Below, in pieces: positions 12,786-26,199 of a DNA stretch of 64,000 bases. Position 1 is the stretch's first letter. Each line of letters opens with the position of its first letter. A program made the position numbers and the translations under genes. Origin of the DNA: Candidatus Spongiisociaceae bacterium (GTDB lineage: Bacteria > Actinomycetota > Acidimicrobiia > Spongiisociales > Spongiisociaceae); the NCBI GenBank assembly GCA_965219685.1, contig CBDCOH010000002.1:2368001-2432000 (forward strand). Reading direction: 5' to 3'. The notes under the pieces were generated by a model. That model saw only the letters and a program-made list of their open reading frames with translations. It was not told where the DNA came from and made no database searches.

Positions 12786-15278
12786 CTACGAGCCGGAGTC
12801 GACCAGGTCGACAGGCGGGATGTCGGGAGTGTCGACCATCTCGAAGACCAACTCCTCGCCCTCGGGGTCGGTGTCCACCACGATGGTGGTTCCAGACGGA
12901 TACTCCCCGAGCAACACCTGCTCGGCCAGCGGATCCTCCAGGTACCGCTGTATCGCCCGCCTCAGCGGACGGGCGCCCAACTCCCGGTCGTATCCCCTCC
13001 GCACCAGGAAGGTCTTGGCGGAGTCGGTCAACACGAGGTCGAGCGCCTGGGTGGCGAGCTGTTCGCGATCCCTCACCAGCAGCAGGTCGACGATCTGCTT
13101 CACCTCGTCCTCGGTAAGGCGGTGGAAAACGATCACCTCGTCGATCCGGTTGAGGAACTCGGGGCGGAAGTGGCGCTTCAACTCGTCGGTCAACTTCTGC
13201 TTCATCTTCTCGTAGCTGACCTCGTCGTCCTCCTGCTGGAAACCGACCGACCGCTTGCGCAGGGAGTGGGATCCCAGGTTGGAGGTCATGATGATCACCG
13301 TGTTCTTGAAGTCGACGGCGCGGCCCTGAGCGTCCGTCAACCGACCGTCCTCGAGGATCTGGAGCAGCGTGTTGAACACATCGGAGTGAGCCTTCTCGAT
13401 CTCGTCGAACAGGACCACCGAGAAGGGCTTCCGGCGGACCGCCTCCGTGAGTTGCCCACCCTCGTCGTATCCCACGTAACCGGGCGGGGACCCGACCAGG
13501 CGGCTGACCGTGTGCTTCTCCATGTACTCGGACATGTCGAGTTGGATGAGCGAGTCCTCGTCCCCGAAGAGGAACTCCGCCAGCGCTTTCGCGGTCTCCG
13601 TCTTGCCCACTCCCGACGGCCCGAGGAATATGAACGAACCGCTGGGCCGTTTGGGATCCTTCAGTCCGGCTCTCGTGCGACGGATGGCCCGGCTGACCGC
13701 CGAAATCCCATCGTGCTGACCGATGATGCGTTTGTGCAGTTCCTCCTCCATGTGCACAAGGCGGGCGGTCTCCTCCTCGGTCAGGCGATGAACGGGGATC
13801 CCGGTCCACTGCGCCAGCACATCGGCTATCTCGTCCTCGTCGATGACCCAGTCGTCGGCTGCCGAACCCGTGCCCAGCTCGGAGGTCCGCCTGGCGCGAT
13901 CCGACAGCAGGGACCTCTCCTGGTCCCGCAACTGCGCCGCCCGCTCGAACTGCTGGGCGGAAACCGCCTTGAGCTTGTCGTTCCTCACCGCGCTCAACTG
14001 GTCGTCGATCTGCTTGAGCTGCGGGCTGGAACTGCGCCGGAAGATGCGGTTGCGGCTTCCGGCCTCGTCGATGAGGTCGATGGCCTTGTCGGGTAGGAAC
14101 CGATCGGAGATATAGCGGTCGGCCAGGTTGGCGGCCATCTTCAGCGCACTGTCCGTGAACCGTACGGAGTGATGGGCCTCGTAGCGATCCTTGAGGCCGT
14201 GCAGGATGAGAACCGTCTCCGCAACGGTCGGTTCGTCAACATGGATCGGCTGGAACCGGCGTTCGAGCGCCGAGTCCTTCTCCAGGTACTTCCGGTACTC
14301 CTCGAGGGTGGTGGCGCCGACCGTCTGGAGTTCGCCACGGGCCAGCATCGGCTTGAGGATGCTGGCGGCGTCGATGGCGCCCTCGGCGGCGCCCGCCCCG
14401 ACCAGCGTGTGGATCTCGTCGATGAACAGGATGATGTCACCCCGGCTCTTGATCTCCTTAAGGACCTTCTTGAGCCGCTCCTCGAAGTCTCCGCGATACC
14501 GGGAGCCGGCCACCAGGGCGCCGAGGTCCAGCGTGTAAATCTGCTTGGCGCTGAGCGTGTCGGGAACCTCTCCCGCCACGATGCGCTGGCCCAGGCCCTC
14601 CACGATGGCGGTCTTGCCCACACCCGGTTCGCCGATCAGGACCGGGTTGTTCTTCGAGCGCCGGGAGAGAATCTGCATCACTCTCTCGATCTCGGTCTGG
14701 CGCCCGATCACCGGGTCCAACACGTGGTCACGCGCCATCTGGGTGAGGTTGCGACCGAACTGGTCCAGCACCGTGGACCCCGACGCGGTGGACCCCCGGC
14801 CGGACGGCGCGGTGCTGGCAGGCGCCGGATCGTCGCCCCCGGACGCCCCAGACAGCAACTGGATGACGGTATGGCGGACCTTGGGGAGGTCGGCGCCGAG
14901 TTTCTCCAGGACCTGGGCGGCGACGCCATCCCCCTCCCGGATCAGGCCGAGGAGTATGTGCTCGGTGCCGATGTAGTTGTGGCCCAATTGCAGCGCCTCG
15001 CGCAAGCTCAACTCCAGCACCTTCTTGGCGCGCGGCGTGAAGGGTATGTGGCCGGACGGGGACTGATGTCCCTGGCCGATCGTCTCGACCACCTGGCTAC
15101 GCACCGAGTCGAGACGGATGCCGAGGCCCTGGAGCGCACGAGCGGCCACACCCTCACCCTCATGAATGAGGCCGAGCAGGATGTGCTCCGTGCCGATGTA
15201 GTTGTGGTTGAGCAGCCGGGCCTCTTCCTGTGCCAGGACCACGACCCGGCGGGCCCGGTCGGTGAAGCGTTCAAACAC
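12786..15278 (-). CDS. clpC: ATP-dependent Clp protease ATP-binding subunit ClpC
   Basis: [22 protein letters not shown]-domain; two AAA+ modules ([16 protein letters not shown]); UVR-like middle coil. Confidence 0.98.
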
Positions 15279-20621: not shown

Positions 20622-20729
20622 GAGGGTGCTGAAAAACCCCGTGCATCGGGGTCGCACATTCGGCCACAGCAGTCGAGCCAATGGTCTGCCGACGAGCGAA
20701 GCCCGAAAGATCCGCTTCTCAGCACCCTC
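20622..20729. mobile_element. 108-bp MITE-like element
   Basis: Terminal inverted repeats GAGGGTGCTGAAAA / TTCTCAGCACCCTC (13/14 match), with CCGG on both flanks (20618-21 and 20730-33). Confidence 0.75.
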
Positions 20730-20742
20730 CCGGGGCCGAAGG

Positions 20743-21309
20743 TTAGGGAGGCAACCTGGCCGCCGCCACCTGCGAGACGGACCGGCCGCCACCACCGGAC
20801 CCCCGACCCCCGACCCGTTGCCCCCGCCACCACCGGTCCTCGATCATCGTGACATCTTGATCGGCCACACCCGCGAGCAGGTCGGACACGCGCGTTCCGT
20901 CAGGATCGCGAGCCTCGGGCCAGGCGGCTGCCAGCGGCTCCATGACGAAGCGGCGTTGCCGATAGCGGGGATGCGGTACCGAGACCTCCACCGTGCGGAC
21001 CACCGAGTCGCCGTGGAGGATGAGATCCAGGTCGATAATCCTCGGACCCCAGCGCGGTCCCCTGACGCGGCCGAGTCGCTTCTCGATGGCGAGCAGGCGC
21101 GCCACCAGATCCTCCGGTTCCAGATCGGTCTCGATCACGGCCACCGCGTTGTAGAAGGGCTGCTGCTCCACAGGTCCCACAGGAGCCGTCTCGTAAAGAG
21201 GAGACAGAGCCTGCAGCCGCCCGAGTTCCGCGAGACGGGCGACCGCCTTGCCGAGGACGGCGCGACGGTCTCCCATGTTGGAACCCAGGGAGACGGCGGC
21301 CGGCGTCAT
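20743..21309 (-). CDS. folK: 2-amino-4-hydroxy-6-hydroxymethyldihydropteridine diphosphokinase
   Basis: SLGSNMGDR, YETAPVG, RWGPRIIDLDLI, PHPR..QRRFV.EPL. Confidence 0.96.
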   Translation of the reverse strand: MTPAAVSLGSNMGDRRAVLGKAVARLAELGRLQALSPLYETAPVGPVEQQPFYNAVAVIETDLEPEDLVARLLAIEKRLGRVRGPRWGPRIIDLDLILHGDSVVRTVEVSVPHPRYRQRRFVMEPLAAAWPEARDPDGTRVSDLLAGVADQDVTMIEDRWWRGQRVGGRGSGGGGRSVSQVAAARLPP

Positions 21310-21316
21310 ACCTGTA

Positions 21317-22165
21317 TCAGTCGCGGGGAGAGTGCCGGACGATGGTCACCGCCACGTCCTCGAAAGGAACCTCGATCGGCGCCTCGGGTTTGTGCACGGT
21401 CACCTCCACCCGGGTGACCAGGCGGTTCTCGAGAACGAGATCGGCCACCCGTTCGGCGACCGTCTCGATGAGGTTCCACTGCTCGCCCGACACCCGGCCG
21501 TGGATCGCCTCCGCAAGAACCCCGTAGTCGAGGGTCTCGGAAAGGTCGTCGGTACGGCCCGCCTCCGAGAGGTCCAGCCGGGCCATGACATCCACCGCGA
21601 AGGTCTGGCCGGCGGCCCGCTCCTCGTCGGTCACTCCATGACGGGCCGGTATGCGGAGACCCTTCAACGTGATCGAGTCGGCGGAACCGCGGACGCGGAC
21701 CGGACCCGGATCGGGTGGGTCCTCGCCCACAACTCCAGCCAGCAGCCGGAGAACCTCTTGGCGAACCTTGGGGAGGTCGGCGCCGAGATTCTCCAATACC
21801 CGGGCGGCGACGCCGTCCCCCTCCCGGATCAAGCCGAGGAGTATGTGCTCGGTGCCGATGTAACTGTGACCTAGCTGGAGCGCCTCGCGTAGGCTCAACT
21901 CCATCACCATCTTGGCGCGACGCGTGAAGGGTACGTGCCCGGAAGGGGATCGGTGACCCTTGCCGATAGTCTCCTCCACCTTGCTACGCACCGAATCGAG
22001 ACGCATCCCCAGGCTTCCGAGGACCCGGGCCGCAACACCCTCACCCTCATGGATAAGGCCGAGCAGGATGTGCTCGGTGCCGATGTAGTTGTGGTTCAGC
22101 AGCCGGGCCTCGTCCTGCGCCATGACCACCACCCGGCGAGCCCGGTCGGTGAAGCGTTCAAACAC
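21317..22165 (-). CDS. folB: Fusion of a ClpC N-terminal (Clp-R) domain with dihydroneopterin aldolase FolB
   Basis: aa 1-144 are ~85% identical to this window's ClpC N-domain. aa ~160-282 are FolB (HGV..EER..GQ.F.VD, TLDY, NLIET.AE, HKP.API). Located between folP and folK. Confidence 0.93.
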   Translation of the reverse strand: MFERFTDRARRVVVMAQDEARLLNHNYIGTEHILLGLIHEGEGVAARVLGSLGMRLDSVRSKVEETIGKGHRSPSGHVPFTRRAKMVMELSLREALQLGHSYIGTEHILLGLIREGDGVAARVLENLGADLPKVRQEVLRLLAGVVGEDPPDPGPVRVRGSADSITLKGLRIPARHGVTDEERAAGQTFAVDVMARLDLSEAGRTDDLSETLDYGVLAEAIHGRVSGEQWNLIETVAERVADLVLENRLVTRVEVTVHKPEAPIEVPFEDVAVTIVRHSPRD

Positions 22166-22227: not shown

Positions 22228-22704
22228 TCAGCCGGAAGGAGGTATCAGTGCACGGGCGCCGGGTCCGAGGGGCCGGCCGATGGCCGACTGTATGGCCATG
22301 GTCGCGAGACGCTCATCGTCGACCAGACCCGAGTACACCACATAGCCTGCCAGGATGCCGGCCACCGCGTCATCCACGAAGTCCCGATGCACCAGCACAC
22401 GAGCCCCCGGCTTGGAAAGCGCCTCGTGGATGGTGGAGAAAGCATGCTCGATAGCGGCCGGCTCGGATTCGAGATCCACCGGGGCCAGACACACCTCGAG
22501 GCCGGCCGCCTCGTAGCTGTTGACGTTCTGGGTTCCCGGGAGCAGGGAGACTACGGTGGTGAAACCCTCATCGACCAGCCAGGCAATCTCCTCTTGGCGG
22601 CGTACCCGCCGATGCTGGAAGCCCTGCCCTCCGATCCGCGCCGAGGTGGCCAGCCGATTGCCGATCACCCAGGCGAAATCACGCGGTTGCAGTCCGGTCG
22701 TCAT
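22228..22704 (-). CDS. Dual-specificity-phosphatase-like protein lacking the catalytic CX5R motif
   Basis: F.WVI...LA.S.R, GFTTVVSL, VLVH followed by RDFVDD instead of CxxGxxR. Confidence 0.65.
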   Translation of the reverse strand: MTTGLQPRDFAWVIGNRLATSARIGGQGFQHRRVRRQEEIAWLVDEGFTTVVSLLPGTQNVNSYEAAGLEVCLAPVDLESEPAAIEHAFSTIHEALSKPGARVLVHRDFVDDAVAGILAGYVVYSGLVDDERLATMAIQSAIGRPLGPGARALIPPSG

Positions 22705-23608
22705 CACCCTTGCCCATCTCCCGCACCATAGCGTCGGCCAGCGCCAAAGCGTCGCGCGCCAGCGCGACATCGTGGACCCTGACGATCGAAGCCCCTCCGA
22801 GCGCGCAGATAGCGGCTGAGACGGCCGTGACCGCATCCCGGTCGTGGACGGGCCGCCCGGTGAGGGCGCCCAGGAACGCCTTGCGGGAGGTACCCACGAG
22901 CACCGGTACGCCCTCCGCGGCGAAGGCGGGCAATCCGTTGAGCAGGGCCAGGTTGTGAGCCGTTGTCTTGCCGAATCCGATCCCGGGGTCGATGGCGATC
23001 GCACCCCGCCGGACTCCCGCCCGCACCGCGGATCCGATCCTGCCACGGAGAAACGCACCTACCTCGCCTACCACATCGGTGTAGGTCGGGTTGACCTGCA
23101 TGGTGCGCGGGTTGCCGCGCCTGTGCATCAGCACCACACCCACCCCGGCCCCGGCGCACAACCCGGCCATCTCCTCCGCCTCCAGCGCTGCCACGTCGTT
23201 GACCACGACCGCCCCGGCCGCGATCGCCTCGGCGGCAACCCTGGGCTTCGAGGTGTCGATCGACACCCGGACCCCGGCGGCGGAGAGGCGTCCCACCACG
23301 CCGACCACCCGGCGTAGCTCCTCGGTCTCATCCACATCGGCCGCTCCGGGGCGGGTCGACTCACCCCCCACGTCGATCAGGTGGGCCCCCTGATCCCTCA
23401 AACGCAGGCCTCGATCCACGGCCCCGTCCTCGTCCATGAAGCGGCCCCCGTCCGAGAACGAATCGGGTGTAGCGTTCACCACGCCCATGATCAGGGTGCC
23501 GCGGTTGGGATCGAGCACCTCTCCGCGTACATGCCAGAGGGGCCTATCGGACCGCACGCGTGCTTCGGGCGGTCGTGGAGGCCCCGGCTCGGAGCCTGAC
23601 GGTTTCAT
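22679..23608 (-). CDS. folP: Dihydropteroate synthase
   Basis: MGVVNATPDSFSDGG, DVGGESTRPG, DPGIGFGK, GTSRK, RVHDV; true start may lie up to ~100 bp downstream. Confidence 0.97.
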   Translation of the reverse strand: MKPSGSEPGPPRPPEARVRSDRPLWHVRGEVLDPNRGTLIMGVVNATPDSFSDGGRFMDEDGAVDRGLRLRDQGAHLIDVGGESTRPGAADVDETEELRRVVGVVGRLSAAGVRVSIDTSKPRVAAEAIAAGAVVVNDVAALEAEEMAGLCAGAGVGVVLMHRRGNPRTMQVNPTYTDVVGEVGAFLRGRIGSAVRAGVRRGAIAIDPGIGFGKTTAHNLALLNGLPAFAAEGVPVLVGTSRKAFLGALTGRPVHDRDAVTAVSAAICALGGASIVRVHDVALARDALALADAMVREMGKGDDDRTATA

Positions 23609-23680: not shown

Positions 23681-24262
23681 TCAGGGGCCGGCCCGGTTTA
23701 TGAGGGCCAGGGCCTCGGCTCTCGTGGCCGGGTTGCTCCGGAACTGGCCTCGGACCGCGGATGTCTGGGTGACCGCTCCAGGCTTGCCGACGCCCCTCAT
23801 CTCCATACATAGGTGGCGGGCCTCGACGACGACGAGCACTCCGCGAGGCTTCAGCACCTCCATCAACGACTCGGCCACCTGGGTGGTCAAGCGCTCCTGC
23901 ATCTGGGGACGGCGGGCGAATCCCTCGACGAGACGGGCGAGCTTCGAGAGACCGGTCACCCTGCCGTCCGGCACGTAGGCCACATGAGCGGTTCCATGGA
24001 AGGGAAGGAGATGATGCTCGCACATCGAGTAGAAGGAGATGTCGCGTACCAGCACCATCTCCTGGTGCTCGTCGGCCACGAACACGCGGTAGAGGTCCTC
24101 CCGTGGATCGCGGTGCATCCCTTCGAAGACTTCCGCGTACATGCGGGCCACCCGGGTCGGGGTGTCGACCAGTCCTTCCCGGCCAGGGTCCTCGCCGATA
24201 GCCTTCAGGATCTGGTGCACAGCGTCTGCGATCGCCTGCTGATCGACCACCCACCCTGACAT
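23681..24262 (-). CDS. folE: GTP cyclohydrolase I
   Basis: [39 protein letters not shown]. Confidence 0.98.
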
Positions 24263-24267
24263 GGTCG

Positions 24268-26199
24268 CTACCCGCTGATCGGGGAATCCCCCGCGGTGGC
24301 CGCCGCCACACCTTCCGAAAGAGCGGGACCGGCCAGGGTCGGCGCCTGGATTCGGGGACCGGCGCCGTCGACCGTTTCCCACTTGGGCACATCGTGGAGT
24401 ACGTCGCTGATCTCCGCGGCCTGGAGGGTCTCCGAGTCGAGCAACCGATCGGCGAGCCGGTGCAAGGAGTCCATGTGAGTGGTGAGTATCCGCTTCGCCT
24501 CGTCGTGAGCCTGACCCAACAATGCCCGGACCTCATCGTCGATAGCGGCGGCGACCTCGTCGGAGTAGTCCTGCTGGCTGGAGTAGTCGCGACCGAGGAA
24601 CACCTCGCCGTGGTCCTTTCCGTACTTCATGGGACCCAGGTTGTCGCTCATCCCGTATTCCATCACCATCCGTCGAGCCAACTCCGTGGCCTTCTCGATG
24701 TCGTTGGACGCGCCCGTGGTCGGGTCGGCGAAGATGAGTTCCTCGGCGGCCCGGCCTCCCATGAGCATCGCCAACTGGTCGGTCAACTCCGAACGGCGCA
24801 TGTAGTTGCGATCCTCCGTCGGAAGTGCGAGCGTGTATCCGCCCGCCCGGCCCCTCGGGATGATGGTGACCTTGTGGATTGGGTCCGCATTGGGTAGGGC
24901 GAAGCCCACCAGAGCGTGCCCGCCCTCGTGGTAGGCGGTCACCTTCTTCTCCCGATCGGTCATGACCCTGCTCTTGCGCTCCGGACCGGCGATGACCCTG
25001 TCGATCGCCTCCTCCAGTTCCTCCGGCCCAACCCGTTCCTTGTCCCGCCGGGCTGCCAGCAGCGCGGCCTCGTTGATGAGGTTGGCCAGGTCGGCCCCGG
25101 TGAACCCGGGGGTCTGGCGGGCGACGACGTCCATGTCCACTTCTTCCGAGATGGGCTTACCCTTGGCGTGGACACCCAGGATGGCCTTCCGCCCCTTGAG
25201 ATCAGGGCGGTCTACGACGATCTGGCGGTCGAAACGTCCCGGCCGGAGCAGCGCCGGGTCGAGGATGTCGGGCCTGTTGGTGCCCGCGACGACAATCACC
25301 CCGCTCGACACATCGAAGCCGTCCAACTCCACCAGGAGTTGGTTGAGAGTCTGCTCCCGCTCATCGTGACCACCTCCGAGACCGGCGCCCCGGTGCCGTC
25401 CCACCGCGTCGATCTCGTCGATGAACACGATCGCCGGAGCGGCCGACTTGGCCTGCTCGAACAGGTCACGCACCCGGCTGGCGCCCACTCCCACGAACAT
25501 CTCCACGAAGTCGGACCCCGAGATCGAGAAGAAGGGCACTTCGGCCTCGCCGGCCACCGCCCGCGCCAGGAGGGTCTTGCCCGTTCCGGGAGAACCGTAG
25601 AGCAGGACCCCTTTGGGGATCTTGGCGCCCATCGCCCTGAACTTCTGGGGCGCCTGGAGGAAGTCCTTGATCTCGCCCAACTCCTCGATGGCCTCCTCGA
25701 GACCGGCCACATCCTCGAAGGTCACCTTGGGCTGGTCCTTCGTGACCTGTTTTGCCTTGGCCTTGCCGAACTGCATGATCCGGCTCCCGCCACTCTGCAT
25801 CTGCATGATGACAAAGATCATGAAACCGAAGATCAGAAGCCACGGAAGGATGCCTAGGACCAGATCCCAGAACCCTGGAGGCTCGGGGTCGATGAGAACC
25901 TTCACGTCGTTGGCGAGCAGGATCTCGGTGAGCGTCCCCTCGTACTCCGCCGGGTACAGAACGCGGAACTCGGCGGGAACATCCGCCACGAGCGTTCCCG
26001 GCACCAGAGCGCCTTCGATGGCATTGGAGCGCTCGAGGATCAGGACCTCGGCCACCGCTCCGGTGGTGACCACCTCCTCGAATACGGTAAGGTCGATCTC
26101 CTCCGGCTTGCTGGCCTGGTTGAGGAACCGCTGTCCCATCAGGACCAACGCCATGACCACGAGACCGTATACGAAAATGGTGCGGGTGGTCTTACTCAA
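24268..26199 (-). CDS. ftsH: ATP-dependent zinc metalloprotease FtsH
   Basis: Two TM helices, [17 protein letters not shown] motif [15 protein letters not shown]. Confidence 0.98.

Follow-up and report, generated by a model that had tools for sequence, protein, structure and literature searches.

A ClpC-type N-domain in front of dihydroneopterin aldolase in a Spongiisociaceae bacterium, apparently overwritten in patches from clpC

We analysed a window of 64,000 nucleotides (nt) from the genome of Candidatus Spongiisociaceae bacterium (assembly GCA_965219685.1, contig CBDCOH010000002.1, positions 2,368,001 to 2,432,000), in which the gene standing in the folB position of a folate gene run, hereafter the fused gene, is predicted to encode one polypeptide made of a ClpC-type N-domain, a flexible linker and a dihydroneopterin aldolase (FolB) whose catalytic site looks intact. 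Judged by its sequence, the N-domain is closely paralogous to the 5' end of clpC, which lies in the same window, and the comparison with relatives indicates that gene conversion from clpC has overwritten it repeatedly, patch by patch. An earlier reading of the bare sequence (the sequence-only reading) had drawn attention to the architecture. The elements concerned are the following.

21317..22165, minus strand: fused open reading frame (ORF), 282 residues plus stop, GTG start, with ClpC-type N-domain, linker and FolB (Pfam, NCBIfam)
21734..22165, minus strand: ClpC-type N-domain, residues 1–144, two Clp_N repeats, eight predicted helices (Pfam, AlphaFold, identity to ClpC)
21680..21733, minus strand: linker, residues 145–162, VVGEDPPDPGPVRVRGSA (pLDDT, alignments)
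21320..21679, minus strand: FolB (dihydroneopterin aldolase) domain, residues 163–282 (Pfam, TIGR00525)
12786..15278, minus strand: clpC, 830 residues, 6.5 kb downstream of the fused gene and on the same strand
14817..15278, minus strand: 5' end of clpC, codons 1–154, the paralogous stretch and presumed conversion donor

The fused protein and its likeness to ClpC

Pfam detected Clp_N twice in the fused protein (E 1.6e-37) and FolB (PF02152) at residues 165–275 (E 1.2e-35, 122.8 bits against a cut-off of 31.8), and the protein also passes the NCBIfam equivalog model for folB, TIGR00525 (114.6 bits, cut-off 72.15). Clp_N and FolB were the only domains found by Pfam in the 282 residues; the middle domain and the AAA+ modules are absent and, lacking the latter, the fused protein is not a ClpC. 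The motifs EER, DY, LIE and HKP are all found in the FolB part, and the catalytic residues E182, Y214, E234 and K259 are invariant in the 31 fused proteins of our alignment (31/31), where we take the Glu, Tyr, Glu and Lys to have the same roles as in the Staphylococcus aureus and Mycobacterium tuberculosis enzymes. No other FolB match was obtained in the whole genome, and the fused gene must therefore supply the aldolase.

AlphaFold, run on the alignment of the 31 fused proteins, returned two confident domains (mean predicted local distance difference test score, pLDDT, 82.8; predicted template-modelling score, pTM, 0.52), with block means of 78–95 for the N-domain and, for the FolB part of the monomer model, the expected pattern of strands and helices at pLDDT 80–91. 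The pLDDT falls below 50 at residues 145–160, as in a disordered linker, and this value together with the pTM implies that the N-domain and FolB have no fixed orientation to each other. The linker, which holds four Pro in residues 145–162, differs in length and sequence between the aligned relatives.

The likeness to ClpC is gapless in BLASTP, with 126 of 154 residues identical (82%). Over residues 2–144 the identity is 121/143 for the protein and 84.8% for the DNA, and the DNA identity with clpC runs continuously from the GTG, with only scattered matches upstream of it. Clp_N is limited in this genome to the fused gene, ClpC and a ClpB-like gene. The points that the sequence-only reading had made from the letters hold: the ORF in the folB position with its GTG start, the in-frame Pro-rich linker, the four retained motifs and the DNA similarity beginning at the GTG were found as stated, and its hand count of about 22 differences from ClpC in the first 144 residues comes to exactly 22 over residues 2–144.

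Occurrence of the fusion among relatives

With the full protein as query, a match in one frame over residues 1 to ~280 was obtained in 11 of 41 relatives. At E <= 1e-85, the fusion is carried by 9/29 genomes of the family, in three of its seven genera. Five of the eight genomes of the genus have it and three lack it. The sequence-only reading had proposed a look at the taxonomic spread, and an even sample of 401 genomes from the order yielded the same in-frame architecture in 13 of them, distributed over three families and including several single-contig assemblies. Leaving out the genome under study, the counts by family are 8/28 in f1, 2/2 in f5 and 2/7 in f8, every statement on f5 resting on two unpublished genomes (G028 and G039), and none of the 125 genomes of f2, the 124 of f4 or those of the other families in the order sample gave a fused match. 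An even sample of the class gave 2/401 genomes. All these counts report what passed the E threshold, below which more divergent fused forms could fall. Over the three families with the fusion, the FolB domains are only ~58–62% identical to the one described here.

The architecture is already present in protein databases, annotated simply as aldolase. Among 120 listed clusters, ~36 pass a motif filter for full-length fused forms, which go by the name 'dihydroneopterin aldolase' from Acidimicrobiia, Actinomycetota or 'bacterium' metagenome-assembled genomes (MAGs). A search of representatives with a fused profile was dominated by multi-Clp_N proteins and gives no cluster count, the fused forms being two of the 150 listed rows (P0152 and P0077), and a contig scan with the fused alignment, its patterns having been chosen from the N-domain, brought up 80 ClpC loci, which are uninformative on the fusion.

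It is very improbable that the fusion is an artefact, be it a chimeric assembly, a mis-called start or a pseudogene, and as far as sequence data go this explanation is refuted. In its favour one may cite that public contigs break at 22056–22120, inside the conserved 5' end of the gene, no single listed contig spanning the whole stretch, and that an in-frame GTG with GGAG 2 nt upstream stands at codon 146, followed by an in-frame TTG at codon 167. Neither of these codons is conserved in the linkers of the aligned relatives, and the relatives start with ATG at the same MFERF start; the earlier claim that there is no good internal start therefore holds as to conservation and has to be amended for the existence of GTG146 and its GGAG. 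Moreover, no stops were found in any fused match to the genomes, the architecture is the same in the 13 genomes of the order, single-contig assemblies included, and the junction is bridged by contigs of two studies. One, from a run that is possibly that of the source sample, covers 20700–22085 with 0 differences; the other, 5350 nt long, comes from an independent study with the label sponge metagenome and covers 20708–21862 with 21 differences. The sequence-only reading had named a chimeric junction as what would undo it, and these contigs give a chimera no support.

At 22049–22119 the summed contig depth in metagenome runs goes up 10- to 100-fold, and the same segment is nearly letter-for-letter common to the ClpC genes of many other organisms. 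In another genome, G436 (72% complete), the fused gene occurs on two contigs (C8 and C22) with identical scores, by duplication or by assembly redundancy.

Gene conversion from clpC

The evolution of the N-domain was followed in a dataset made of the first 143 codons after the start, taken from 11 fused genes and from the clpC genes of 30 genomes. The tree built on this DNA places fused N-domains next to ClpC sequences of the lineage they come from (G018 100/99, G004 100/100, G002 99/96, G039 96/67), the copies of G021 and G022 join the ClpC of their genus (99/91) and those of G000, G007 and G001 join the ClpC of G000 and G007 (96/91). A single clade of the 11 fused N-domains was rejected, at a log-likelihood cost of 239 and a p value of 1.4e-46 in the approximately unbiased test. 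As a gauge of the time since the last copying, fused copies lie at synonymous distances from their own ClpC of 0.20 (G039, G018, G002) up to 1.36 (G001), the distances between ClpC N-domains of different lineages being mostly 0.8–1.7.

In sliding windows, the copy of G002 is 93–98% identical to its own ClpC in windows 1 to 5 and 78% identical in the final one, that of G039 92–99% and then 80%, and that of G004 80–87% and then 94%. The runs of identical polymorphic sites exceed those of permutations in these three genomes (G002 p 0.0016, G039 0.010, G004 0.031) and are not significant in the other eight. No sliding window had a fused copy of a different genus that was closer than a ClpC. It is the grouping with the own-lineage ClpC, taken together with the mosaic identity tracts, that indicates gene conversion from clpC; repeated re-acquisition of the whole domain was also considered and fits the mosaic tracts poorly. 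Three states absent from the 30 ClpC are common to fused copies across genera, namely N26D (five copies), Q140R (six) and I113V (five), a sharing that either common descent of the fused gene or parallel change could explain.

In G001, the fused N-domain groups with the G000 and G007 copies and its own ClpC with G003 and G005 (97/97), although both genes lie on one contig, a mismatch that suggests recombination or transfer within the genus. In G021 and G022, clpC lies 370–490 kb away from the fused gene, and the synonymous distances between fused copy and ClpC are intermediate (0.73 and 0.56).

Selection on the N-domain

The pairwise ratio of nonsynonymous to synonymous rates (dN/dS, Nei-Gojobori) is 0.12–0.47 for the fused N-domain, with 0.36 and 0.47 in the two closest pairs. 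For the FolB part it is 0.13–0.30 among f1 copies and up to 0.72 against f5 (closest pairs 0.24 and 0.21), and for the ClpC N-domain 0.00–0.10 (closest pairs 0.00). The comparison with clpC advocated by the sequence-only reading hence cuts both ways: the ratio stays below 1, and it is well above that of ClpC. Since the ClpC protein barely changes, neutral evolution since the last identity with ClpC should give a nonsynonymous share of ~0.58; the share observed is lower in 7 of the 11 genomes (p 0.043 to 6e-6), the test using raw counts and ignoring conversion tracts. The fear that the N-domain would prove both neutral and absent in close relatives was borne out in its second half, with absence in 3/8 genomes of the genus and 20/29 of the family, and not in its first for those seven genomes. 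Purifying selection on the fused N-domain thus appears relaxed but mostly present.

At the level of residues, F2, F80 and E89 are invariant in the 31 aligned fused proteins and in the 11 genome copies. These are named as critical for cyclomarin binding in ClpC1 in PMC10030653. T6 and K85 are likewise kept in 11/11 copies, and E31 in 10/11.

Loss of the N-domain and origins of the fusion

The genome G013 has an unfused FolB and belongs to the same genus as G021 and G022, which have the fused form. Upstream of its folB the fused gene survives as its first 21 codons, 20 of which are identical to those of G022, and this relic has the QENAR variant, which occurs in the fused copies of that genus and in 0/30 ClpC. 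A deletion of ~390 nt follows the relic, after which a TGA overlaps a new ATG (ATGA), and the FolB so opened is 92% identical to that of G022, linker end included. Read from these sequences, G013 is a documented loss of the N-domain by deletion, and the deletion appears to have left a translationally coupled leader. The sequence-only reading had anticipated neither the recurrent loss nor the concerted evolution with clpC. In the corresponding locus (L050, G013:C34, ~605–730) we noted a 23-codon relic ORF with its TGA overlapping the ATG of the unfused FolB. Two other apparent relics upstream of an unfused folB were discarded, that of G019 being really the C-terminus of a homologue of gene X, the gene preceding the fused gene in our window, and that of G006 a chance match.

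FolB trees of 22, 50 and 68 rows do not resolve the number of fusion origins within the main FolB clade; in the last, obtained by a quick search only, the fused f5, f8 and one f1 subclade are separated by unfused lineages with weak support. A second Clp_N+FolB lineage is represented by P0089 and P0097, which stem from two sources and were read from contigs 2065 and 2647 nt long. In this lineage the FolB domain falls among the FolB-HPPK fusion proteins of Acidimicrobiia MAGs, and its FolB clade is split from the main one at 100/99. Two FolB backbones carrying the architecture hint at more than one origin: it may have arisen twice, or the N-module may have moved.

Comparison with known systems

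Among solved structures, the best match of the N-domain is that of mycobacterial ClpC1 (3wdc, 7aa4, 8a8u; E 3e-69, residues 1–147 onto 1–147), with which it shares the two Clp_N repeats, the all-helical fold and the residues F2, F80 and E89. Unlike ClpC1, the fused protein has FolB in place of the AAA+ modules, and its N-domain evolves several-fold faster than that of ClpC. Another instructive relative is ClpC2, which PMC10030653 and PMC13345244 describe as a sponge and sensor for cyclomarin, rufomycin and phospho-arginine and as a phospho-arginine-responsive repressor in mycobacteria and other Actinomycetota, acting as a sponge after ~300-fold induction according to the second of them. As in ClpC2, there is an N-domain-like module without ATPase and the cyclomarin pocket residues are conserved, but the fused protein is not an orthologue of this self-repressing protein, with E 3.7e-25 to ClpC2 chains versus 3e-69 to ClpC1 N-domains and only 62 nt between its start and gene X. 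The N-domain-like part of ClpC2 is C-terminal, behind an operator-binding region, whereas that of the fused protein is N-terminal to an enzyme, and ClpC2 is ~40% identical to the ClpC1 N-domain (PMC13345244), whereas the fused domain is 82% identical to the genome's own ClpC and apparently maintained by conversion.

On the enzyme side, the protein agrees with FolB (TIGR00525; 1nbu, 1z9w, 9b2e) in scoring above the curated cut-offs, in its catalytic residues and in its folE-folP-folK context, and differs from an ordinary FolB of ~120–135 residues by an N-terminal extension of 162 residues. FolB is also joined to another domain in the FolB-HPPK fusions, common in Acidimicrobiia MAGs, but there the partner is the next enzyme of the pathway and stands at the C-terminus, whereas here it is a proteostasis domain at the N-terminus.

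Full-text literature searches, which did not cover subscription journals, found no paper on a Clp_N+FolB architecture, in line with the sequence-only reading, which knew of no functional description. What appears to be new, from the sequences compared, is the format of this N-domain paralogue without ATPase, together with its unusual mode of evolution. Five other proteins (P0122, P0123, P0124, P0003 and P0130; 493–1762 residues) consist only of tandem ClpC N-domain modules, with 6–15 Clp_N repeats each (8 in P0122 and 15 in P0123), and by their predicted domains show that multivalent display recurs.

Possible roles of the N-domain

The reading that we tentatively prefer, which draws on analogy and is put forward as a possibility, is that the fused protein forms an aldolase oligomer which is active and presents its ClpC-like binding domains as a decoy or competitor, close to the multivalent decoy or adaptor that the sequence-only reading had suggested. 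FolB proteins form tetramers and octamers. As the sole FolB match and with its invariant catalytic residues, the fused protein would be the working aldolase of the cell; its FolB part would assemble as in other FolB proteins, so that the oligomer would carry four to eight tethered ClpC-like N-domains. These could bind the ligands of the ClpC N-domain, that is adaptors, degrons, phospho-arginine or the cyclic peptides that target the ClpC1 N-domain, and the protein would act as a non-proteolytic competitor, as stand-alone ClpC2 does in mycobacteria, with conversion from clpC keeping the mimic in register with its target. This reading is favoured by the rejection of neutrality in seven of the 11 genomes, by the invariance of F2, F80 and E89 and by the precedents of ClpC2, of the tandem N-domain chains and of the second Clp_N+FolB lineage. 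Sequences of these Acidimicrobiia turned up in sponge and coral metagenome runs, those runs with <0.2 of the sampled words being left out of the habitat labels; none of the matching sequencing runs listed was an RNA run. A bolder form of the proposal, in which a constitutive multivalent mimic of the ClpC N-domain, actively kept alike by conversion, protects against cyclic peptides or other factors aimed at that domain and has arisen at least two times on different FolB backbones, is in our opinion unlikely.

Much weighs against a selected decoy. Folate enzymes are usually scarce and the ClpC2 sponge needs massive induction, which makes a stoichiometric decoy doubtful. The genome, 96.7% complete, yielded no McsB-type guanido (arginine) kinase. 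R21 and P79 are each replaced in 3 of the 11 copies, and E106, the second of the two GTEH glutamates that we take to be part of the two phospho-arginine sites of Bacillus ClpC, is Gly in 11 of the 31 fused proteins. The fused N-domain evolves several-fold faster than that of ClpC, with 50/143 positions invariant in the 11 fused copies versus 105/143 in the 30 ClpC. Neutrality was not rejected in 4 of the 11 genomes (G002, G004, G039 and G031), among them all three with significant conversion tracts, and since conversion from a frozen donor can itself mimic constraint, we rate the evidence for purifying selection as moderate. Finally, the patchy spread (9/29 genomes of the family, 5/8 of the genus) and the deletion in G013 argue that the N-domain is dispensable in close relatives.

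Several of these observations fit equally a tolerated, locked-in appendage, which we hold to be nearly as probable as the decoy. A copy of the clpC 5' end would have landed in frame before folB and supplied its start codon. Stops or frameshifts in it would abolish the only FolB and a misfolded tag would harm an essential enzyme, so that the frame would stay open and the domain folded and soluble, its fold protected and its binding unselected; conversion from clpC would refresh it passively, until a deletion recreates a start codon. The patchiness in the family, the G013 relic, in which 21 codons, a deletion and a new ATG record just such a loss, the much relaxed constraint relative to ClpC, the four genomes in which neutrality stands and the Gly at E106 would all be expected, as would the disordered and variable linker and the fact that most invariant positions in the 31 fused proteins are Gly, Leu, His or Phe of the repeat core. 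What an appendage accounts for less well is that neutrality is rejected in the other seven genomes, that the closest-pair dN/dS is 0.36 and 0.47 and not 1, that F2, F80 and E89 are invariant throughout, that the fusion persists in three families despite FolB domains only ~58–62% identical, and that a second lineage exists on another FolB clade, which is hard to get by accident alone. A third explanation, that the N-domain acts on FolB itself and couples its stability, assembly or location to the ClpC system, for example by making FolB a conditional ClpCP substrate or by tethering it to ClpC partners, and so links folate synthesis to proteostasis, seems improbable to us. The domain is always on FolB, the searches made did not turn it up on FolK or FolP, FolB is the first committed enzyme of the pterin branch after FolE, clpC and the fol genes are neighbours in most genomes examined, clpC typically lying 5–10 kb from the fused gene, and mycobacterial FolB is reportedly regulated by a tetramer-octamer equilibrium; yet the AlphaFold model gives no sign of contact between the domains (pTM 0.52, linker disordered), unfused FolB works in most relatives, and we know of no docking of this kind between N-domains or between an N-domain and AAA+ modules.

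Whichever applies, the locus is well defined by its sequence, and the domain looks clearly dispensable in close kin. The ClpC1 N-domain is the target of several natural antibiotics, and ClpC2 copies are a recently recognised way to blunt them; if the decoy reading is true, an N-domain copy carried on a housekeeping enzyme that forms oligomers would be a competitor of a new format. If the domain is only tolerated, the locus would show how a fusion is locked in through the translation of an essential enzyme, and how it is later lost. It also provides a clear natural example of an essential chaperone gene evolving in concert, over part of its length, with an unrelated enzyme gene.

Gene neighbourhood

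The genes next to the fused gene are listed below.

20743..21309, minus strand: folK (HPPK), immediately downstream of the fused gene (Pfam HPPK, E 1.6e-37)
22228..22704, minus strand: gene X, ~158 residues, between folP and the fused gene, no known family
22679..23608, minus strand: folP (dihydropteroate synthase; Pfam Pterin_bind, E 6.3e-78)
23681..24382, minus strand: folE (GTP cyclohydrolase I; Pfam GTP_cyclohydroI, E 9.6e-78), limits from the ORF tool

On the minus strand the order is ftsH, folE, folP, gene X, the fused gene, folK and a DUF2520 gene, and it goes on with panC, a type III pantothenate kinase-like ORF, lysS and, further on, clpC; panC, the pantothenate kinase and lysS were named by reading their translations, without a library search. 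Gene X is separated from the GTG of the fused gene by 62 nt, and no promoter-like or terminator-like site was found inside the run from folE to folK, for which reasons the folE-folP-X-folB-folK run is likely to be co-transcribed. Gene X overlaps the end of folP. It has no NCBIfam match, and its only family match is a weak, phosphatase-like one (PF22741, E 0.044); at the position of the Cys-phosphatase signature it reads HRDFVDDA, with no Cys. A homologue of gene X is found upstream of folB in G019.

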